A DNA stretch of 64,000 bases. Origin: a phage. How positions within the stretch are numbered: position 1 is the first letter of the stretch; the number at the start of each line of letters is the position of its first letter. The stretch is taken from the sequence record PZ179883.1; one strand, 5' to 3'. The notes beneath the pieces are model-generated. The model saw only the letters and a program-made list of their open reading frames with translations, had not been told where the DNA came from and did no database searches. Positions 5,674 through 40,152 of this stretch are shown here, one piece after another. Both the position numbers and the translations under genes were made by a program.

Positions 5674-6998
5674 TTGATTTCCTCTAAATCTTTAGTGTAT
5701 TCTGTAACTACATCAGTAGTTTTCCAATATTCGTTTTCTTCTTTTTTGGCTTTAGCTTCTTCAGCAAGTTTCTTTGCTTCGTCGGAAGTCATATGAAAAA
5801 TGTTCATTCCAACTAGTTTATCAACATAAGAAGAATACATATCAATTTTAGAAAGTTCTTCGGTCAGTTCTTTGCGAGTTTTACCTTGTACAACAATTTC
5901 ACCTGAAATTACTTTCTTAATGAAATGTGCCTTGGCAAAAGCTAAACGAAATGCTGATTCAGTTTCTTTGATTTTGTTATCAATTCGTTTTTGGACATAA
6001 GTTTTACGAACTTCAACGAAGTCTTTGATTAAATTAACTACATTATCGTAAACTTGCAGCTTTCCTTTCTCATTAATGACGGTAATATTCTGGGAACGAC
6101 GCTCAATCAACCCGAAGTCTTTCATAATTTTTGCATGGCGTTCTTCTTCATTATCGCTCAAAGAGTATTCTTTTCGGAATTTAACTTTGAAGCCAAAGCC
6201 ATGCTCACCACAAGCATCATCCCATGTAATGAAGCCTTTATCTTCAAGCGGGTCTAAGATTTTACTCACATAAGTTTCACGATCATACTTATATGGAATC
6301 TCAGTGATATGCATTTGAGTTCGTGAAGTAAACTTATATGTTCCACGAATTTCATATTGCCCATCAATTTCAACGACTTCACCACGAAATTCTGGGAATT
6401 CTACCTTCGGTTTAGTTACTTTCTTTCCTTGAAGAGCTTGCAGTACAGCTTTCTTGACAGAAGAAACACTATGAGGAAGAATGTAAGTTGCATAACCAGT
6501 TGCAATACCGGAAACGCCATTAAGAAGAACAGTAGGAATAATAGGCAAATAGAAAGCAGGCGGAATGTGTTCTTTATCTTGATGTACTGGAGCATATTCA
6601 GTATCTTTATATACGTTATAGAAATTTTTACTTACACGAGCAAAAATATAACGACTTGCTGCTGCCTTTTGGACAGTACGAGAACCAAAGTTTCCTTGAC
6701 CGTCTAACAGAGGAAAGTTATTATTCCAAGTGTTAGCCATCAAAGCACCTGCGTCTTGTGCAGAGTTTTCACCATGATGATATCCAAGGTCCGCTACACC
6801 GCCTGCGATAGAAGCGAGTTTGTGAAACTTATCTTTATTTCCTCGTGCCAAATCAAGAGCTCGAGCAATAACAAATCGTTGAACTGGCTTAAATCCGTCA
6901 ATCATATTTGGAATGGCACGATTTTCAACCGTGTACATAGCATAAGCCAATGCTTCATTATCAATGATACTTTTTAAATCACGATTATTCAGTTGCAT
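5670..6998 (-). CDS. 52: DNA topoisomerase II medium subunit gp52 (GyrA-like), 442 aa
   Basis: 442 aa; translation matches recalled T4 gp52; position between motA and ndd. Confidence 0.95.
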   Translation of the reverse strand: MQLNNRDLKSIIDNEALAYAMYTVENRAIPNMIDGFKPVQRFVIARALDLARGNKDKFHKLASIAGGVADLGYHHGENSAQDAGALMANTWNNNFPLLDGQGNFGSRTVQKAAASRYIFARVSKNFYNVYKDTEYAPVHQDKEHIPPAFYLPIIPTVLLNGVSGIATGYATYILPHSVSSVKKAVLQALQGKKVTKPKVEFPEFRGEVVEIDGQYEIRGTYKFTSRTQMHITEIPYKYDRETYVSKILDPLEDKGFITWDDACGEHGFGFKVKFRKEYSLSDNEEERHAKIMKDFGLIERRSQNITVINEKGKLQVYDNVVNLIKDFVEVRKTYVQKRIDNKIKETESAFRLAFAKAHFIKKVISGEIVVQGKTRKELTEELSKIDMYSSYVDKLVGMNIFHMTSDEAKKLAEEAKAKKEENEYWKTTDVVTEYTKDLEEIK

Positions 6999-15557: not shown

Positions 15558-15925
15558 TTAAATTTAATGGCTTGAAGAAGACTAATAATTCTCAAGCGAC
15601 TTCCTTCATCTTTAACTGTAAAAGAAAGAGGGTCACCAGATTTCATAGTGATAGTGCATTCAAAAGCAAAACCTTCGGGAACTTCTTCGAAGAAGTCAAA
15701 TTCTTCATCATAAATTAGAACATTACTCTGAAAACTGTGAAGAATTTTTCCGTCATTTCCAGATGCTGTACTAATCATTGTAACATTATTACCTTTCATA
15801 TCTTCAACGATAAATTCGCTTGTAGATATTACAGCATTAATAGAACCATTCCTATAAATAGCAGAAAATAGATATTTCTTTTCTTCACCTTCGCGAATGC
15901 GATATTTCTTACCGATTTTAAACAT
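15554..15925 (-). CDS. Hypothetical protein (123 aa)
   Basis: ORF in 39-motB interval. Confidence 0.55.
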   Translation of the reverse strand: MFKIGKKYRIREGEEKKYLFSAIYRNGSINAVISTSEFIVEDMKGNNVTMISTASGNDGKILHSFQSNVLIYDEEFDFFEEVPEGFAFECTITMKSGDPLSFTVKDEGSRLRIISLLQAIKFK

Positions 15926-26934: not shown

Positions 26935-28274
<1,340 letters not shown>

Positions 28275-30992: not shown

Positions 30993-32417
30993 AAATTTTA
31001 ATTCATTTGCCAAAGCATCTAACTGAGCTCGAGTGGATTCATTTCTTTGATAGCGATTCTGCTCAGCTTGTATCTGTTGTGAACCTGCTACCTCACTCAC
31101 TTCAGTTGGAGTAGAATCTTGTTCAATTTCTACCCATTTCTGATTTCCTTTTTGAACACCCATCAAAAACTTATTCCATTTATTCTTATCACCATATCGT
31201 GATTTGATTTGCTTAATAAGTTGTTGTTCAGCAGCTGCTAACTCCTCGGTTTCAATGACCGCAAGCATAAAATCAGCTGTTGCTGGAAGACCGGCAGATT
31301 CTGCAATATCGCTCATGTTAACATCAGAAGAATCCCAAGCTTGTTTACCAACCTGTGCTGCAGTCCAAAGAACAGTTTCGGTTTCAACAGCAAGAGCACG
31401 TAATTCCTCTGCAATGGCTTTAACAGTTGTGTAACTATTTTCTGAGTAAACTCTAATGCGGCAAGATTTACAAATACCCAGATAGTCGACAATAATGATT
31501 GTTGGAACAAAATTCTTCTTGAGCTTTAATTCGTTTAAAAGCGATCGAAATGTATTAGCATCTGCTCCACCAGTAGGATACTGTTTAACTATTAAACGAC
31601 CGAGAGTAGATTTCTCGCGCCATTTTTCCATTTTTCCTTTATACTCAGCGTAAGAAATATGCCCGTCATCAATGTCATCAAGAGAAACATCAAGCATATT
31701 AGCATCAATACGCTTAGCACAGACTTCTTCTGCCATTTCCATGGAAATGTAAAGAACGTTATGACCAAGCTGTAAATAATCTGCTGCTAATGAACAAAGT
31801 CCTAATGATTTACCAACGTTAACACCAGCCATTAAAACGTTCAGTGTTCCAGTTTCAGCTCCGCCTTTAGTAATTTTATTTAGAATTTTGAGTTTAAATG
31901 GAACCTTACGGGCTTTATTCATATAAGATAGCCAACGTGCTTCATAGTCATCCATCCAATCATGACCAACGTAACTATCAAATGAAATTGATAATGCTTG
32001 GCGCATGATGTCAGGAATAGCACCTACATCTGGCATTTTCTTATTTCGTTTTTCCGGAGGAAGCTCAGCATTAGTTTGAATTTCGATTATTTTAGACGTA
32101 GCATTAAACATCGCCCTTTGCTGAACATATTTTTCTGTTTCTTTTACTAACCAACTGTGGTCTTCTGGAGAATCGGCTAGTTTTGAAATAAGTGTTTTTA
32201 CACCAGAATATTCTGTTTCAGTAAATGAACTATTTTCTAATGCAACATTTAACGCATTAATAGATGGAACGCTATGGTACTCATTAACATGAGATTTGAT
32301 TAATTTGAATGTATTTTTAGCTGGACCACTTTCAAAATATTCTGAATCCATATATGGCCAAACTTTTGAAAAATAAGCTTGATCAAATATGAGATGAGAA
32401 AGAATAATTTCTACCAC
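30990..32417 (-). CDS. 41: Replicative DNA helicase gp41 (DnaB family), 475 aa
   Basis: Translation MVEIILSHLIFDQAYF…; Walker A GVNVGKS; 475 aa. Confidence 0.95.
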   Translation of the reverse strand: MVEIILSHLIFDQAYFSKVWPYMDSEYFESGPAKNTFKLIKSHVNEYHSVPSINALNVALENSSFTETEYSGVKTLISKLADSPEDHSWLVKETEKYVQQRAMFNATSKIIEIQTNAELPPEKRNKKMPDVGAIPDIMRQALSISFDSYVGHDWMDDYEARWLSYMNKARKVPFKLKILNKITKGGAETGTLNVLMAGVNVGKSLGLCSLAADYLQLGHNVLYISMEMAEEVCAKRIDANMLDVSLDDIDDGHISYAEYKGKMEKWREKSTLGRLIVKQYPTGGADANTFRSLLNELKLKKNFVPTIIIVDYLGICKSCRIRVYSENSYTTVKAIAEELRALAVETETVLWTAAQVGKQAWDSSDVNMSDIAESAGLPATADFMLAVIETEELAAAEQQLIKQIKSRYGDKNKWNKFLMGVQKGNQKWVEIEQDSTPTEVSEVAGSQQIQAEQNRYQRNESTRAQLDALANELKF

Positions 32418-32426
32418 ACTTACTCC

Positions 32427-32789
32427 TTAAAAGAATTTAAATTTTTTCTTTGACCTTTTATTAAATGCATCTTGTAGTTGCATTGTAATACATTTTTCTA
32501 CATGAGGAGCTAACTCAGCTTTTCTTTCTTGGTCAAGAACAGCAAAGTCCATTACGACTTTTCCATCAACCCAATCTAATTTTGTCACATACACAATGTG
32601 TGTAGAACCATCTTCTAGTTTAATGACAATCTCCTGGATAACATTTTCCATGGCAGATTTAATTATCTTAAGAGATTCATTAAAAAGACGTTCTTTTCTT
32701 TCTTCTTCCCCCTCCGAAGAGGGGGATTCGTCAATAATTTCTAGATCTAAATCTAAATCATCTTTATTCATTAAATTCTTCCATATCAC
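32427..32789 (-). CDS. 40: gp40 head-assembly membrane protein (120 aa)
   Basis: Position between uvsX and 41 as in T4; start overlaps uvsX 3' end. Confidence 0.7.
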   Translation of the reverse strand: MIWKNLMNKDDLDLDLEIIDESPSSEGEEERKERLFNESLKIIKSAMENVIQEIVIKLEDGSTHIVYVTKLDWVDGKVVMDFAVLDQERKAELAPHVEKCITMQLQDAFNKRSKKKFKFF

Positions 32790-33945
32790 TTAACTGATCT
32801 AGGTCAGTTTCTAAATCAGCAGCTGATTTACTTTTACTTTCTGGGGATTTAAATTTTTCAACCTTTGAGTTAATTAATTCATCAACTTCAGCTTCAACAA
32901 TTTCATTACTATCAATAGCGCCTAATTGATAAGCACGTTTAATAGCATCCCGGAATGGTTGATGCTTAAATAAAGGACCCCAAAATGTAGTGCAATTGGT
33001 ATCTTTTGCACGCCAAGATTTTTCTTCGCGAATCATCTCGCCGGTTTCTTCATCAAGAAATTCACGAGCATACCAGCCATTTTTAGGTTTTACTACAAAT
33101 CCTAATTCAAGGGCCATATCTAATAATCCAGAATAAGGATCGATGCCACCATCAAATTTAACATCAATAAAGAATTTACTTTTTTCTTTGACGGTACGAG
33201 ATTTTTCTACATTTAGAACAAATTGATACCCCTGAAGATCAGAACCATCTTTAATCTGACGTTTACCGATAATGAATACAGTATCAGCCGAATACATTAC
33301 GCCTGTACCACCTGTCATCACGGTTTTACTAAACATTTCAATTGTTTCAATTGTATGGTTAACCGCAACACACGGAATGTTTTTAATACTAAAATAAGGA
33401 GTAACAATACGGAATAATGACTTCAGTGATTTAGCACGAGTCATATCTGCCACAGATTTTTCATTCAAGGCATCTTCCGTTTCTTTCTTAGAAGCCATAT
33501 TACCAATTGAGTCGATGAATACAATAACTTTTTCACCGCGCTCAATAGCTTCAAGCTGATTCACCATATCAATTTTCAGCTGTTCAACTGACTGGATTGG
33601 TGTATGAATTACTCGTTCCGGGTCAACTCCCATGGATCGCAAATAAGCTGGAGTGATACCAAATTCGCTATCATAAAATAGACAAACCGCATCAGGATAT
33701 TTGTTCAAATATGCCGCAACCATAGTCAAAGACATATTTGATTTAAAGTGTTTAGAAGGACCTGCGAAAATAGTTAAACCAGACTGCATACCGCCATCAA
33801 TCGCACCGGAAATAGCGATATTAAGCATTGGGATTTTTGTACGGATTACATCCTTTTCATTAAAGAACTTAGATGTAGTCAGTTCAGCAGTCATTTTAGA
33901 AGTGGAAGCTTTAATCAAACGGGATTTTAAATCTGCAATAGACAT
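32764..33945 (-). CDS. uvsX: UvsX recombinase (RecA-like), 393 aa
   Basis: Walker A GPSKHFKS; RecA fold motifs; matches recalled T4 UvsX. Confidence 0.95.
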   Translation of the reverse strand: MSIADLKSRLIKASTSKMTAELTTSKFFNEKDVIRTKIPMLNIAISGAIDGGMQSGLTIFAGPSKHFKSNMSLTMVAAYLNKYPDAVCLFYDSEFGITPAYLRSMGVDPERVIHTPIQSVEQLKIDMVNQLEAIERGEKVIVFIDSIGNMASKKETEDALNEKSVADMTRAKSLKSLFRIVTPYFSIKNIPCVAVNHTIETIEMFSKTVMTGGTGVMYSADTVFIIGKRQIKDGSDLQGYQFVLNVEKSRTVKEKSKFFIDVKFDGGIDPYSGLLDMALELGFVVKPKNGWYAREFLDEETGEMIREEKSWRAKDTNCTTFWGPLFKHQPFRDAIKRAYQLGAIDSNEIVEAEVDELINSKVEKFKSPESKSKSAADLETDLDQLSDMEEFNE

Positions 33946-34022
33946 TCATTTTTTCCATAGGCATCATTATATTTTCCTCACTGGTTAAAGATAGAATAAT
34001 TATAACACAATAAATTTAGGCA

Positions 34023-34865
34023 TTAATCAACTGCTATTGGATGAATAGCATTAAACTTATGAAATGCTTCTGATTTTTCTTTACGCGAAACACACATGCG
34101 AAGAACCTTTAATGGCTCGTCTTCTTCACCCAACGATTTTCGTTTTTCAATATTCGATGTTTTCCAACGAGCTTGCTCTGGAAACTCTCTATTGATTTGC
34201 TCAAGCGCTCTATTATGTTTAGAATTACTACGAATTGAACTACATCCACCGGGAGCGTGTGATTTTCCAGATACAACTAGATATTTGAACAAGGCCAAAT
34301 GCGGATAACCTTGATTAATTAAATTGAGAAATGCATACATATCTTCGCATAAATCAATTTTTCCATACCCAATTTGTTCTGTCGTAAGTTTTCCGAGGTC
34401 ATACCATGTATTCGTGAATCCATATGAGTTTTCACGATAATTACCCCAAGATGAAGTAATTTTAAAAATTGGTAGACGAGCATGACCGTGATAATACCCG
34501 CAATCCATGGCATCTTCAACATATTGAATCAATTCATAGAACTGTTCACGAGTTAATTGATTAATTTTATCTACACGCCGTTTATCGTCTCTCTTTCGTA
34601 TTGAACTCATACGAATAGTAGTATCATCATCAATCATCCAGATTCGTTGACCTGCATACATATCAGTAATTGCTTTACGAGTACCAGCAATTCCATTAAC
34701 ATCATCAGGAATAGTTATAATTTTAGCTCTAGACCCATAAGCGTCATAATAAGCTTTTTCTTCGTGTTTACGTACTACAATATGAGGTTCATAATCAGTT
34801 GGAAACATATCAAGGGCAGAAACTGCCCCTACACGCTGATAACTTGGAATTACGAATTGAATCAT
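34023..34865 (-). CDS. Glycosyltransferase (280 aa), candidate T2/T6-type beta-glucosyl-HMC-alpha-glucosyltransferase
   Basis: Occupies the T4 bgt locus between uvsX and 42 but is not T4 beta-gt (351 aa); DxD-like motif IWMIDDDTTI. Confidence 0.55.
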   Translation of the reverse strand: MIQFVIPSYQRVGAVSALDMFPTDYEPHIVVRKHEEKAYYDAYGSRAKIITIPDDVNGIAGTRKAITDMYAGQRIWMIDDDTTIRMSSIRKRDDKRRVDKINQLTREQFYELIQYVEDAMDCGYYHGHARLPIFKITSSWGNYRENSYGFTNTWYDLGKLTTEQIGYGKIDLCEDMYAFLNLINQGYPHLALFKYLVVSGKSHAPGGCSSIRSNSKHNRALEQINREFPEQARWKTSNIEKRKSLGEEDEPLKVLRMCVSRKEKSEAFHKFNAIHPIAVD

Positions 34866-35503
34866 TTAAGTGCCTTACATTTGTCAAAATGGTATCTTGT
34901 CATATTTGGCCCACGTCCTTTTAGTCCGCAATGCGGACATATTTTTTCTATCAAATTATGAGGTTTTCCTTTACGATTTTTAGACATCGTTTCTTTAATT
35001 ATTTTAGCTTTTTCTACGCCAAAAATTTCTTCATAAGTTTTACCAGAATTTTCCTTGGCTCGATTTATAATTCCATATGCCTGCTCATTTTTACCATACA
35101 TTGGATTACCTTCGCCTTTCATTCTTTTAGAATGATCAGGACGCTTGATTCCACGAAAGGCATTTCCGCACTTATATCTTTCTTCTGGAGATAGTTTTTT
35201 ACCGTACATTCCATTTAATTTGCCTGGAAAACTTCCTCCCCATGCTTCATTCTTTAAATTATATGAATCCGGACAATTAGCAGCATCTAAACAAGTTAAA
35301 ATAATTTCTTCAACCTGTCTAAACATTGGTCCTTCATATAATATTTCTTTATTAAAGGATTTTATTCCATATTTCTTTTTAGCATGTTGCCAAACTACAC
35401 CCGAACCATCATAATTCGGGTTGTGACCATCATGACTTCCTATATACCACTTTTTAGTTTTAGGATGTTTATACTTATAAACATGTGGCACATTTACTTC
35501 CAT
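34862..35503 (-). CDS. GIY-YIG homing endonuclease, Seg-like (213 aa)
   Basis: N-terminal GIY-YIG motif (HVYKYKHPKTKKWYIGSHDG) and NUMOD3-like repeats (GKK…PEER, SKRMKGEGNPMYGK); ATGA overlaps with both neighbours. Confidence 0.7.
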   Translation of the reverse strand: MEVNVPHVYKYKHPKTKKWYIGSHDGHNPNYDGSGVVWQHAKKKYGIKSFNKEILYEGPMFRQVEEIILTCLDAANCPDSYNLKNEAWGGSFPGKLNGMYGKKLSPEERYKCGNAFRGIKRPDHSKRMKGEGNPMYGKNEQAYGIINRAKENSGKTYEEIFGVEKAKIIKETMSKNRKGKPHNLIEKICPHCGLKGRGPNMTRYHFDKCKALK

Positions 35504-36234
35504 TTTCCAGTATAATCCTTTTTAGCAATATGAGTCTCACCGGTGTTCCACCAATGGTCAACTAAATAAAACTGATTTTCGTACACATGAAGACTTCCAA
35601 CGTTCCATATAATAGAACCTGCTTTATATTGCCGCGATGGGTCGCCTGCATTCAAATCAGATACTAATTTATCTAGTACGTATTTTTGCCAAGCATAATC
35701 ATTACGATAGCCTGCCCAGCAATCATTGCTTCTCATGCTAACAACCGCATTGACTTTCTTATCACGAATCAGGTACTGTACTGTATTCGTACACATGAAA
35801 TCTGACATACCATCTTTATTGTAGTCAAACTGCATAGATGGACGAGTATAAATCATGATACCACGTCGAGAATCAGGATTTTGACCAAGTTCAGCTAAAC
35901 ACATATCATACTGGGCATAGTTATCTTCTGACCAGATGGCCCAACCATAATTCGAGTTAATTTCGCCTTTAGAAGATGCTACCTGCTGCCAAATCTTTGG
36001 TGTTTCACCTGGAATATCTTTAACAAACAAACTTTGAGACTTATACCATTCAAGTTCACGCTGAATGTATTCATCATTAAGAGCGCCAAAAATAAACGGT
36101 TCATCTGCTACAAATGATGCGCCAATAATTTCAATAGTTTTAACGCCAGTTTTATCAACTACGAAATCTTTTTCTTTTAATGCAAGCCCCAAATGAAGAC
36201 GGATTTCTTCAACTGTCATAGAGTCACTAATCAT
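35494..36234 (-). CDS. 42: dCMP hydroxymethylase gp42 (246 aa)
   Basis: Thymidylate-synthase-like fold motifs; 246 aa; matches recalled T4 gp42. Confidence 0.95.
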   Translation of the reverse strand: MISDSMTVEEIRLHLGLALKEKDFVVDKTGVKTIEIIGASFVADEPFIFGALNDEYIQRELEWYKSQSLFVKDIPGETPKIWQQVASSKGEINSNYGWAIWSEDNYAQYDMCLAELGQNPDSRRGIMIYTRPSMQFDYNKDGMSDFMCTNTVQYLIRDKKVNAVVSMRSNDCWAGYRNDYAWQKYVLDKLVSDLNAGDPSRQYKAGSIIWNVGSLHVYENQFYLVDHWWNTGETHIAKKDYTGKWK

Positions 36235-36387
36235 TTAAACCTCAATTGATACATTCATATTTAACTTGTAACAGTAATAAACCCCAACCTAAAATAATAG
36301 TTGGAATCATAAGAGGAACCGTTACACTATAGTATATACTTATTATAATCATCAAGATTAAAAGCAACACTGCTATAATTTTGCTTT

Positions 36388-36639
36388 TCATTCCTTCTCT
36401 CTGATGATAATTACTTGATTTGGCTGTGCAGACTTTTTAGTTTCACCAGCAATTGACCAAATAAATGTAATAAACCAACCAATGATTGACCAGTTAAACA
36501 GTAAAGATGTAAAAAAGATTCCTACTGTCGATTTTGACCCACGCATCAAGGCAATGAACCAAGGAAGCATGTATATAATAATAGCCAACACACCTGAAAC
36601 TAAAACCATAAAAATTGAACCTGCTACTAAAGTTTCCAT
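36388..36639 (-). CDS. imm: Immunity (superinfection exclusion) protein Imm (83 aa)
   Basis: 83 aa two-TM membrane protein at the T4 imm position. Confidence 0.85.
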   Translation of the reverse strand: METLVAGSIFMVLVSGVLAIIIYMLPWFIALMRGSKSTVGIFFTSLLFNWSIIGWFITFIWSIAGETKKSAQPNQVIIIREKE

Positions 36640-36646
36640 GTTTTCC

Positions 36647-37027
36647 TCACTTAGTCAAATTTTTTACGCATGAATTATAAGAATTTACTACATACTCAAT
36701 CGGAGCATTTTTACCAGTACGCCATTGATAATTATTAGCCCAATTAGCCCAAAGTTCGGCACAGTAACTTTCAATTTTTTCTTCACGTGTAATCACATCT
36801 GAATTACGATATGCTTGAGCAGATTCATCTGGACGAATAGCTTCGTCAAAATTCGCCTGCATTTGTTCTACTGTCTGTTTTGGAGCTTCTTTATAACACT
36901 TAACATTAGGATTATAAAATTTGCTTGAACAGTTTACAATTTTTCGTACATCAGACTGATTTACTACTGGTCCTTGAGCTACACAGCCAGTAAGACCCAA
37001 TGCAATAACCAAAATAGCGATTTTCAT
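36647..37027 (-). CDS. Putative lipoprotein (126 aa), imm.1 position
   Basis: Signal peptide with lipobox LTGC. Confidence 0.55.
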   Translation of the reverse strand: MKIAILVIALGLTGCVAQGPVVNQSDVRKIVNCSSKFYNPNVKCYKEAPKQTVEQMQANFDEAIRPDESAQAYRNSDVITREEKIESYCAELWANWANNYQWRTGKNAPIEYVVNSYNSCVKNLTK

Positions 37028-37037
37028 AATAATTTCC

Positions 37038-37274
37038 TCAAATACAAGTAGTAATTACTCCAGTAGTGCTTACACAGGTATTACCTAATTGAACACCCAG
37101 CGTTCCATTAGTATTCATATGAAGATTATCATCAATTTTTGTTGATACTTTACCATTCATGCGAATAACAGTATTAGATTCAATCACATTCTGAGTGTCA
37201 TTTTCAATATCAATAAATGGAACAGCTGCTAATGCAACTAAACACGCTGCTAAACAACCATAAACAATTTTCAT
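37038..37274 (-). CDS. Small secreted/membrane protein (78 aa)
   Basis: ORF-track ORF trimmed to the ATG at 37274 downstream of the promoter; signal-like MKIVYGCLAACLVALAAVPF. Confidence 0.5.
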   Translation of the reverse strand: MKIVYGCLAACLVALAAVPFIDIENDTQNVIESNTVIRMNGKVSTKIDDNLHMNTNGTLGVQLGNTCVSTTGVITTCI

Positions 37275-37305
37275 TTTATTCTCCAAATCCGTATCAGTTG
37301 ATAAT

Positions 37306-37340
37306 TGTATAGTACCACGGAAGAACAGGGATGTAAACCA
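37306..37340 (-). promoter_or_regulatory. T4-type early promoter
   Basis: GTTTAC (rc 37333-37338) and TGGTACTAT; about 70-bp near-identical copy of the element at 9063-9130. Confidence 0.6.
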
Positions 37341-37420
37341 TTTTGTGAAAAAATTTTTAATGAATTCCAGAGGTCCAGAATCATCTATTTTTCCTAAGTA
37401 TAGATTTATATTACTTGTAT

Positions 37421-37442
37421 GAAAAAGGGACCCGGAGGTCCC
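37421..37442 (-). terminator. Rho-independent terminator downstream of gene 43
   Basis: GGGACC-CGGA-GGTCCC followed by U5 on - strand. Confidence 0.6.
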
Positions 37443-37455
37443 TAGATTTATTCTA

Positions 37456-40152
37456 TCAGCCAAACAGGAAGTCTAACGAAGCTTTTTCCTCATAGTCCAT
37501 ACCCGCCGATTCACACATACCCGCAAGCGGTTTAACAAACGATTTTTGGAACAAAGTTGAGTAGTCAATCCAAGACAGTACATCAGAACGAATTTCTTTT
37601 GGAAGTTCCGTACCCGATGGCCAAGCAATGCACTTGTCACCAAATGGATTTCCCTCACGTAATGGAAGAACCATTACCTTATTTCCATCCAAAATTGGAG
37701 CTACACCTAAACCGCTAACAGCTCGACGATAAGTTAGCACCCCACGAATGTGGAACGGGCATTTAAATCCTGGCCAACCTTTATCGTCATATTTCGCTAT
37801 ATCGTTCGCAGTTTTTACTTCAGCAATAACTTTATAGTCAAGTTGACGATATTCTTTCTCAAAGTTCTTATAGTATTCTTGGACAGACTCTTCACCTTCC
37901 TGAAGAATGCGACGAATACTTTCTTCGAGAGCTTCTTGTACTGCTTTTGGTGTTGAACTCTGCTGAGTTTCCATACCCATGATTTTTAGATGTGGTTCAG
38001 CAAATCGTTTATCTTCCATATCATAAACGTTCAGAGCATAACGTTTTTTCGCTTTCCAAAATCCACCAACACCCTTTGAACCAAGCGGAGGACAAGAAAT
38101 AGCTTCACGGTCCATATGCATCAGATGCTCGCGGTTATTCATATAATCACATAACTCACGATATGCAACATCAATCATAGGTTCCATCTTTTTCTTACCA
38201 AACTGATTCATGAATTCAACTAAATCATTTTGTTCTTTAAAGCGATCAAGACCTACTTTTTCAATAACTTTATCTACACAAACATATACCGAATCAGTAT
38301 CACCCGCTGCGATGAAATCTTCGCCATTAGTTCCACACACCTTATTCAAGTATTCATTAATTTTACGAGCAATCCACTGAATACCAACTTGACCAAAAAT
38401 TGTGATAGCAGTAGCATTTCGCAAATCATAATAACGGAAATGAATATTACCAAGAGCACCATAAAGACTGTTGATAAGAATTTTACGGTTTAGCTGATTT
38501 GTGTTAGCAAGAGTAGCTGCTTTTTCACATTCTTCAATCAGACTATTAAGAACAGATTCGGTGTAATTCGATAATTCATTTAAGAAATCATCATTGAACT
38601 TAACATATCGTTCAACTTCTGGTTTAGTTGAACAAGACCCTGCACCTTTCATAATAATCTTTTTAATAGCTTCGGCATTCATTTCTTCGGCGAACATTTT
38701 CTTTTTCCAATCTTTACGCTGGAAAAATACTTTAGCGATTTCCTTTGGAATGATACCTTCTTGGTGCTTATCATACATCCATCCATTCGGAGAGCAAGAA
38801 TATTCATCACTTGGCTTAGGAGCTGTTCCTGCGATGTATTCATGAATTGGATGAACTTTGAACTGACCACGAATAGTTTCAGGACTAATGTTAACCTGAC
38901 GAATAATGCTAGGATACAGAGACGTCAAGTCAAAACTCATAATGTATCGACGGGCAATCGCTTTAGGTTCAAACACAAATGCACCTGGAAAACTTTGTTT
39001 AACGTGCGAACCTTGTTGAGGAATAACCTTGTGTTCACCTTTCAATGAGTTAAAAATAATAGCATCCCAAGTTTTAATAGGACTCATTACACCAGAAAAA
39101 GGCATTTTAGCGTAATAAGACATACTTAAAACTAGATCGATAAACCCACGAATTTTATCAATTGCTTGAACTGATTCTACGTCAATGATGTTATAACTAA
39201 TGTATCGTTGATGATTAGTCTCACGAAGTTTATTAATAGGACCGTCGTATGGTAATTTACCTTTTTTGGTTTCATGTTGAGCAACTGATTCCAAAGAGAA
39301 TGATGGCAAATTAGTAAATGCGAATTTTTTGTACAAATCTAAATAATCAAGAATAGATACGCCATCAATAGAATAAATTTCTTTGCTACCGTACATATTT
39401 TGAATTAGTTTAGATTTTACTCGACCGATTGGGGAGAAGCGTTTCATACTGCGTTCGCCCAGAACCATTTTAACGCGATTCATGATATACGGAACGTCAA
39501 ATCCCTCAATATTCCAACCGGTAAAAATAGCAGGTCGTTTCTGTTCCCAGAGATTAATATATTCCATGAGCATATCACGCTCATTATCAAATGGCATATA
39601 AATTACTCGGTCAAGAATTTCTTGAGGAACTTCATCACCACCTTCACAGTCAAGCTTAGCAGCTAACTTTGCATCCCATTTTGATACTGAACCGTACATT
39701 GAATTCAAAAGGTCGAAAACATAAAAACGATCATCAATTGAATCGTAATGAGTGATAGCATCAATTTCATATTCAGCTTTCATTGGGTCAGGAAATTTAT
39801 CACCAGTAACCTCAATGTCACAGTTAGCTACACGAACAAATTTTCGGTCATAAACAATTTCTGAACCATACGTATCACTGATATAAGCGAGTTTAAAATC
39901 GTTCATACCGAGAGCTTCGAGACCGATGTCTTCCATTCGCTTCATCCAATCTCGAGCATCTTTCATTGATGGAAATTTTTGAGGAGCGCAGTTTTTACCG
40001 TAGATGTCTTTGTATTTTGACTCTTCCTTACAATGCCTAAACATAGTTGGAAGATATTCTACTTCACGAGTACGTTCCTTTCCGTTTTCATCAATATAAC
40101 GTTCAACAATATTATTTCCGACTGTTTCGATAGAGATATAAAATTCTTTCAT
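37456..40152 (-). CDS. 43: DNA polymerase gp43 (family B), 898 aa
   Basis: Translation MKEFYISIETVGNNIVERYIDENGKERTREV…; exonuclease and pol motifs (YGDTDS); 898 aa as T4. Confidence 0.97.
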   Translation of the reverse strand: MKEFYISIETVGNNIVERYIDENGKERTREVEYLPTMFRHCKEESKYKDIYGKNCAPQKFPSMKDARDWMKRMEDIGLEALGMNDFKLAYISDTYGSEIVYDRKFVRVANCDIEVTGDKFPDPMKAEYEIDAITHYDSIDDRFYVFDLLNSMYGSVSKWDAKLAAKLDCEGGDEVPQEILDRVIYMPFDNERDMLMEYINLWEQKRPAIFTGWNIEGFDVPYIMNRVKMVLGERSMKRFSPIGRVKSKLIQNMYGSKEIYSIDGVSILDYLDLYKKFAFTNLPSFSLESVAQHETKKGKLPYDGPINKLRETNHQRYISYNIIDVESVQAIDKIRGFIDLVLSMSYYAKMPFSGVMSPIKTWDAIIFNSLKGEHKVIPQQGSHVKQSFPGAFVFEPKAIARRYIMSFDLTSLYPSIIRQVNISPETIRGQFKVHPIHEYIAGTAPKPSDEYSCSPNGWMYDKHQEGIIPKEIAKVFFQRKDWKKKMFAEEMNAEAIKKIIMKGAGSCSTKPEVERYVKFNDDFLNELSNYTESVLNSLIEECEKAATLANTNQLNRKILINSLYGALGNIHFRYYDLRNATAITIFGQVGIQWIARKINEYLNKVCGTNGEDFIAAGDTDSVYVCVDKVIEKVGLDRFKEQNDLVEFMNQFGKKKMEPMIDVAYRELCDYMNNREHLMHMDREAISCPPLGSKGVGGFWKAKKRYALNVYDMEDKRFAEPHLKIMGMETQQSSTPKAVQEALEESIRRILQEGEESVQEYYKNFEKEYRQLDYKVIAEVKTANDIAKYDDKGWPGFKCPFHIRGVLTYRRAVSGLGVAPILDGNKVMVLPLREGNPFGDKCIAWPSGTELPKEIRSDVLSWIDYSTLFQKSFVKPLAGMCESAGMDYEEKASLDFLFG

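Follow-up and report, generated by a model that had tools for sequence, protein, structure and literature searches.

The window analysed here, a 64-kb stretch (64,000 nucleotides) of the phage record PZ179883.1, belongs to a T2/T6-like Tequatrovirus, and the minus-strand gene order across the region of interest is 43, imm.1, imm, 42, a 213-residue open reading frame (ORF), ba-gt, uvsX, 40 and 41 (Table 1). This ORF, a putative Seg-like homing endonuclease gene, is the subject of the present analysis. It is unbroken from ATG to TGA and stands alone, outside any intron or intein; gene 42 and ba-gt are both intact. A first-pass annotation, made from the sequence alone, had described a free-standing endonuclease gene that invaded an operon and overlaps both flanking genes by ATGA. 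The seamless insertion between 42 and ba-gt bears out the former point. As to the overlaps, ATGA is found on the downstream side, and in empty sites an identical ATGA links the gene 42 stop to the ba-gt start; the upstream overlap, however, spans 10 nucleotides (nt), and in Klebsiella phage KP185 a comparable overlap of 13 nt is annotated. In agreement with that annotation, T4 has no gene at this junction, but a 23-nt gap between b-gt and 42; the T4 glucosyltransferase gene beside 42 is a different one (b-gt, 351 residues), and segA lies on its other side, between uvsX and b-gt. No other Seg-like genes and no tRNA genes were found within the 64-kb window.

Table 1 Features of the gene 42–ba-gt region (window coordinates; residue ranges refer to the encoded protein)
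Feature	Position	Strand	Basis
Seg-like free-standing homing endonuclease gene, 213 residues (coordinates include the stop codon)	34862..35503	-	ORF list, PHROG 314
Gene 42, dCMP hydroxymethylase, constant upstream neighbour	35494..36234	-	Pfam Thymidylat_synt
ba-gt, beta-glucosyl-HMC-alpha-glucosyltransferase, downstream neighbour, 280 residues	34023..34865	-	Pfam TAGT; annotation in T2, RB10, HP3
ATGA overlap, Seg stop and ba-gt start	34862..34865	-	Sequence
10-nt overlap ATGGAAGTAA, Seg start and gene 42 end	35494..35503	-	Sequence
632-bp insert relative to endonuclease-free relatives	34866..35497	.	Alignment with T2 and pSe_SNUABM_01
GIY-YIG catalytic domain, residues ~1–92	35228..35503	-	Family profile versus 1LN0, Foldseek 1MK0
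NUMOD3-like repeat linker, residues ~95–140, NGMYGKKLSPEERYKCGNAFRG / RPDHSKRMKGEGNPMYGK	35084..35221	-	NUMOD3 matches of homologues
Helical region, residues ~141–177	34973..35083	-	AlphaFold helices 140–152, 157–161 and 163–177, pLDDT 85–97
C-terminal beta-beta-alpha CCHC zinc-finger-like module (C189, C192, H205, C209)	34868..34948	-	Conservation and model
Apparently foreign, co-segregating 3′ third of gene 42, residues ~167–246 (MRSND-CWAGY...DPS...ENQ...TGKWK)	35494..35743	-	Fixed differences, divergence, nearest neighbours

Protein family and predicted fold

The protein matches PHROG 314 ('homing endonuclease') with E = 2e-31 and has 70 homologues in a large protein database. A family profile made from an alignment of 47 homologues matches the catalytic domain of I-TevI (1LN0; E = 0.006) and places Y9, Y20, E65 and N82 opposite I-TevI Y6, Y17, E75 and N90; across the 47 sequences, Y9 is conserved in 45, Y20 in all, E65 in 40 and N82 in all. 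Pfam matches among the same homologues are to NUMOD3 (PF07460) in 33, with a best match of 4.5e-10, to SegE_GIY-YIG (PF19835) in 17 and to GIY-YIG (PF01541) in 7. For the window protein itself, the sole Pfam match is to NUMOD3 and lies below threshold (E = 0.0027, 18 bits against a cut-off of 20.4), and TIGR01453, with 24 bits, stays below its cut-off of 56 bits. A search of the PDB with the single sequence pointed to a sugar-binding protein, a spurious result that the family profile and the structure model have replaced.

The AlphaFold model, with the three-stranded sheet and helices typical of the GIY-YIG superfamily, has a mean predicted local distance difference test score (pLDDT) of 87, rising to 93–98 over residues 11–80. 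Its best PDB match in Foldseek is I-TevI (1MK0; probability 1.00, target template modelling score 0.67, root mean squared deviation 2.8 Å), with the I-TevI structure 1LN0 also among the best PDB matches (probability 1.00), and among viral models 227 of the Seg/GIY-YIG type match it at E ≤ 0.001. The first-pass annotation, which had staked its assignment on a GIY-YIG fold in structure prediction, is therefore supported in this respect: the N-terminal GIY-YIG module is recovered by PHROG, profile and fold, whereas the NUMOD3-like repeats that it had also named are weak in the protein itself. Within the catalytic domain, the motifs VYKY (residues 8–11), YIGS (20–23) and YDGSG (31–35) are followed by E65 and N82; the segment between YIGS and YDGSG comprises seven residues (H24–N30), none of them an arginine.

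The C-terminal half begins with a linker of lower pLDDT (56–79), and two or three NUMOD3-like repeats can be discerned in this half of the protein. The helical region that follows is presumed, from the model, to form part of the DNA-binding half. In the terminal zinc-finger-like module, each of the four ligands is conserved in 43 of the 47 homologues, the model shows strands at 186–188 and 195–197 and a helix at 199–212, and Foldseek gives weak matches to UBZ and other zinc fingers. The same module (CPHC...RYHFDKC) recurs, with up to 76% identity over 25 residues, in phage endonucleases that are otherwise unrelated, among them an HNH enzyme of phage Bp7 (H95) and a protein of Erwinia phage Kaldavass (H99), which suggests that it is shuffled between endonuclease families, HNH enzymes included.

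Purifying selection on the protein is indicated by ratios of non-synonymous to synonymous substitution rates (dN/dS) of 0.14–0.44 against orthologues from other lineages. An identical protein is publicly available, in NCBI as a 'hypothetical protein' (HY03_0158, EC121, ACG-C40 and others) and elsewhere as a putative homing endonuclease; its UniRef label is 'Homing endonuclease', and other public labels include 'SegD' and 'similar to segC'. The last two are loose, because the similarity to these proteins is partial and the locus differs.

Distribution among related phages

Megablast of the locus yielded 508 related, Tequatrovirus-type phage records, of which 78 carry the endonuclease gene. In most non-carriers (T2, RB10, RB33, HP3 and others) gene 42 adjoins ba-gt directly, at a junction reading TGGAA/ATGATTC (insertion point at the slash), and the corresponding span is exactly 632 base pairs (bp) shorter (1069 versus 1701 bp). 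By tblastn, the copies in 72 records are at least 99% identical and those in six are 95–99% identical, and the at least 99%-identical copies sit on backgrounds that are 2–6% apart. The endonuclease gene itself (diversity 0.3–1.5%) is less diverse than most of the DNA around it. Carriers are scattered over unrelated backgrounds, and the flanks show only chance-level association with the presence of the gene. This patchy occurrence, including the absence from T2, RB10, RB33, HP3 and T4, supports the strain-specific element proposed in the first-pass annotation.

Broken copies also occur. The gene is split into two frames or ORFs (127 + 86 or 110 + 117 residues) in Klebsiella phage Roth67 (L005, 3001–3617) and in Roth04, Roth77 and Roth78, in E. 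coli phages REP2 and REP3 and in Yersinia phage PYps5T; these copies reflect either degeneration or sequencing error. Directly after gene 42 in three further sequences (L154, 3776–3874; L155, 3770–3868; L156, 3501–3599) lies a remnant that matches endonuclease residues 178–212, that is, the zinc-finger module, and that is probably a decayed copy. Decayed and split copies fit a homing cycle, as expected.

A linked block at the 3′ end of gene 42

Alignment of the flanks of eight carriers and 12 non-carriers over window positions 31800–38500 revealed a one-sided association. All 19 fixed differences between the two groups lie at 35503–35641, within the last 140 bp of gene 42, and a further dense block of differences at 35707–35743 is fixed except in Salmonella phage pSe_SNUABM_01. 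Divergence between the groups is 14–16% across 35542–35841 and 2–6% elsewhere. On the ba-gt side of the same alignment, no carrier-associated differences were found, right up to the insert. The nearest neighbour has the same endonuclease state for all 20 phages in the 3′ end of gene 42, whereas the counts in four flanking regions are 6, 14, 10 and 11 of 20, with about 10 expected by chance.

Compared with T4 and T2, gene 42 of the window is 96% identical over its first 480 nt and 78–79% identical over its last 261 nt. At the protein level, carrier gp42 reads NDCWAGYRND...DPS...VYENQFY...TGKWK where non-carriers and T4 have NDVVFGFRND...DST...VYSRHFY. Because other T4-like genera have the carrier-type motifs as their native ones, the block and the endonuclease gene appear to have been imported together.

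The gene 42 of pSe_SNUABM_01 (L003, locus 1–1146) has a carrier-type CWAGY block followed by a non-carrier SRH block, and is therefore recombinant. The same phage has a 'putative endonuclease' beside a shortened uvsX, and its 41–uvsX region is diverged by ~15% from all other phages compared. Across T4-like phages (homologues in L005, L011–L028 and L090–L169), WAGY at gp42 residues 173–176 tends to occur with xNQ or xRQ at residues 219–221, and VVFG[FY] with [SE]RH; these co-occurring motifs may be co-adapted residues of the enzyme.

The same arrangement in other lineages

Every close homologue of the endonuclease (35–71% identity) for which the upstream flank was recovered lies directly 3′ of a gene 42 homologue, even though the gp42 encoded in some of these contigs is only 28–62% identical to that of the window. 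The downstream neighbour and the junction sequence vary among these homologues; gene 42 is constant.

Among 157 records of Klebsiella phages of the genus Jiaodavirus, an orthologue with 70% identity occupies the 42/ba-gt junction in 13. Carriers and non-carriers of this genus are 95–100% identical over gene 42 codons 1–172 and 69–77% identical from there to the stop codon, and no association with carriage was found on the ba-gt side. Carriers in a metagenomic lineage (the L100 group), whose backgrounds are 5–10% apart, are nearly identical to one another from the M-R-S-N-D codons of gene 42 through to the last codons of the endonuclease gene. All three lineages agree in the codons at which the linked block has its left edge (window 35722–35736). 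Recent copying of the carrier gene 42 end between Tequatrovirus and Jiaodavirus was considered and rejected, as the two ends share only 56–77% nucleotide identity.

Comparison with known homing endonucleases

T4 SegA–SegE, which are active enzymes, are 31–38% identical to the window protein over its N-terminal part only (88–167 residues), SegC and SegB being the best matches. They share with it the catalytic subtype (GIY...YIG, a short loop, YxGSG and no arginine at the position of I-TevI R27) and the setting, a free-standing ORF packed among essential early genes with a patchy distribution. The similarity ends, however, after the catalytic domain and the NUMOD3-like region, and none of T4 SegA–SegG has the C-terminal CCHC zinc finger. 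Orthology with T4 segA is ruled out by 32% identity and a different C-terminus; more generally, the lack of full-length similarity and the different locus exclude orthology with any named T4 Seg protein (SegA, SegC or SegD).

SegF shows marginal similarity to the window protein (E = 7e-4 over 55 residues) and SegG none. In T4, SegF cuts gene 56 and SegG cuts gene 32, and the intervening stretch is co-inherited, giving a diverged, linked allele. The mode of action proposed below resembles theirs, namely a cut inside a conserved adjacent gene, a few hundred bp from the insertion site, but the target genes differ, and cleavage by the window protein is a prediction only.

I-TevI, encoded by the intron of T4 td (1LN0, 1MK0), has the same catalytic fold, the same aligned Y, Y, E and N residues and a comparable modular organization of catalytic domain, linker and DNA-binding domain, including a zinc finger. 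It differs in that identity is ~20%, in that the window gene lies outside an intron, and in that the helix bearing R27 is shortened in the window protein. The zinc finger of I-TevI is in the linker, that of the window protein is C-terminal, and no helix-turn-helix was detected in the latter.

Replacement of mobC and mobE by SegH and Hef in relatives of T4, with unrelated endonuclease families at one site, has reportedly been described by Sandegren et al. (2005). The 42/ba-gt junction is likewise used by unrelated families, although at another locus and with other proteins: in Klebsiella phage vB_KpnM_Shark_ER15 (L182, 1526–2056) it holds a gene for a 176-residue HNH-type endonuclease (HRHHIIPKHAGG...NIVYLTPEEHAKAH) with NUMOD3-like repeats, and two unrelated endonuclease families therefore occupy this junction. 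The Shark_ER15 gene adjoins a gene 42 of the non-carrier type, and its product has only the NUMOD3-like stretch in common with the window protein.

Proposed mode of homing and alternatives

From sequence comparison we infer nuclease activity, cut position and homing as follows: the ORF is in all likelihood a mobile, free-standing Seg-type GIY-YIG homing endonuclease gene of a lineage specialised on gene 42, with a predicted cut in the 3′ third of that gene. In a mixed infection, the enzyme would bind the DNA of a phage that does not carry its gene through its C-terminal half (NUMOD3 repeats, helices and zinc finger) and would then cut the recipient's gene 42 within the 3′ third. Our best guess for the cut is near the M-R-S-N-D-V-V-F-G codons, which correspond to window 35707–35745 and lie ~200–240 bp upstream of the insertion point; the S-R-H codons, at window 35572–35581 and ~75 bp upstream, are a second candidate. 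Recombinational repair templated by the carrier genome would transfer the 632-bp gene along with the end of the carrier's gene 42, which is heavily substituted and presumably uncuttable. The 3′ block of gene 42 is thus the predicted region both of the target and of the carriers' immunity. Expression would presumably occur by read-through of the gene 42 transcript, the endonuclease gene being co-transcribed with gene 42 and ba-gt, and translation is probably coupled to that of both neighbours.

Several observations weigh against this interpretation. The Pfam GIY-YIG models (PF01541, PF19835) give no match to the protein itself at E ≤ 0.1, and the profile alignment shows no arginine at the position of I-TevI R27. 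The latter is not disqualifying, because T4 SegA–SegE likewise lack it; R62, conserved in 37 of the 47 homologues, might on a speculative view act as a substitute. No dedicated promoter was found for the endonuclease gene, sigma-70-like sites being at shuffle expectation, nor was a hairpin that would sequester its ribosome-binding site (z = -0.08). A T4 late promoter (TATAAATA) was likewise not found within ~9 kb of the gene, the only two in the window being at 15853 and 25964. Literature searches returned no paper naming or characterising an endonuclease at the 42/ba-gt locus. With respect to the target, pSe_SNUABM_01 has the carrier-type block at 35707–35743 and no endonuclease gene, and two endonuclease-free contigs of the metagenomic lineage (L104 and L105) have a carrier-type gene 42 3′ end; the link between allele and endonuclease is therefore not absolute. 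Moreover, divergence of ~20% could by itself keep the gene 42 block linked by suppressing crossovers, so that the block alone does not locate the cut.

These last points lend some weight to an element of the same class that recognises and cleaves the empty 42/ba-gt junction, where the first-pass annotation had placed the target. Insertion would then disrupt the site, as in the classical logic of intron-encoded homing endonucleases, and the gene 42 end would be hitch-hiking donor DNA, its linkage maintained by high divergence; L104 and L105 would simply have an intact target at an empty junction. We regard this as unlikely. Cleavage at the junction predicts two-sided co-conversion, whereas the ba-gt side is free of association up to the insert, fixed differences being confined to the gene 42 3′ end, and the same asymmetric cassette is found in Jiaodavirus and in the metagenomic lineage. 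The junctions themselves are unrelated between lineages, TGGAA/ATGATTC in Tequatrovirus versus ...TCTTAAT/TTTGATATT in the L100 group, and the only constant neighbour among carriers of orthologues is gene 42. The asymmetry, a left boundary common to three lineages, and a gene 42 that stays constant while the junction varies together make a target inside the 3′ third of gene 42 more probable than one at the junction.

It appears improbable that the protein is a DNA-binding remnant, either inactive or domesticated, with vertical inheritance and repeated losses of its gene and with a patchiness that stems from deletion and general T-even recombination. T-even genomes are highly mosaic in any case, Roth04/67/77/78, REP2/REP3 and PYps5T have split or frameshifted copies, and both the missing R27 equivalent and the silence of the Pfam GIY-YIG models would suit such a remnant. 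Set against this are the conservation of Y9, Y20, E65 and N82 across the 47 homologues, the low dN/dS, the 72 records with at least 99%-identical copies on backgrounds 2–6% apart and an in-gene diversity below that of most flanks, the recurrence of one cassette structure in three lineages, and the same arginine-less YxGSG architecture in the active T4 SegA–SegE. AT-rich DNA gives many spurious ORFs in other frames, but a chance ORF or mis-annotation can practically be dismissed here, being refuted by the family, profile and fold matches, by conservation across genera and by purifying selection.

Beyond a gene-42-specialised homing endonuclease in the window, a broader but tentative proposal, which we consider possible and rather less likely than its opposite, is that a Seg lineage dedicated to gene 42 moves between T4-like genera as a fixed cassette with a replacement C-terminal third of gp42, starting always at the M-R-S-N-D codons. 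This start lies at a point that we take to be between the catalytic Cys148 and Asp179 of dCMP hydroxymethylase. If the proposal is correct, homing repeatedly makes chimeric versions of an essential DNA-modification enzyme, crosses with T4-type phages could drag along the type of glucosyltransferase (ba-gt versus b-gt), and the spread of a selfish element would be linked to a DNA-modification, and hence anti-restriction, phenotype.

More modestly, the T-even set gains an uncharacterised and unnamed Seg endonuclease, for which the last 250 bp of gene 42 are predicted as the target in a concrete and testable way. In three independent lineages, the locus would also offer a clean natural case of an essential enzyme gene made mosaic by an endonuclease. 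The element could help to explain marker exclusion and mosaic boundaries near 42 and the glucosyltransferase gene in T2/T6-like therapeutic phages. The understanding of homing endonucleases is unchanged: the gene belongs to a well-known class, in which it is unexceptional, its sequence is in public databases, and a gene-42-specific Seg cassette in three lineages is a tidy, unsurprising comparative result.

Other observations near the locus

In a metagenomic lineage represented by L020 and L021, the uvsX homologue appears as two tblastn pieces ~1.2 kb apart (6216–6854 and 8071–8508 in L020; 5343–5981 and 7198–7635 in L021), which suggests an intervening element in uvsX, whether intron, intein or endonuclease gene. 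Elsewhere in the window, a 186-residue ORF on the minus strand (27714–28274) separates dam from gene 61, two genes that in T4 are 310 bp apart with none between them; the ORF has no Pfam match and matches phrog_8706, of unknown function. The stretch between imm.1 and gene 43 (window 37040–37300) is hypervariable among Tequatroviruses, with 17–20% pairwise divergence among non-carriers, and the small ORFs annotated there differ between records. In Klebsiella phage KPV15 (L183, 801–1534), gene 42 is annotated as two overlapping coding sequences (801–1181 and 1178–1534); this implies a frameshift in an essential gene, which is most likely a sequencing error.

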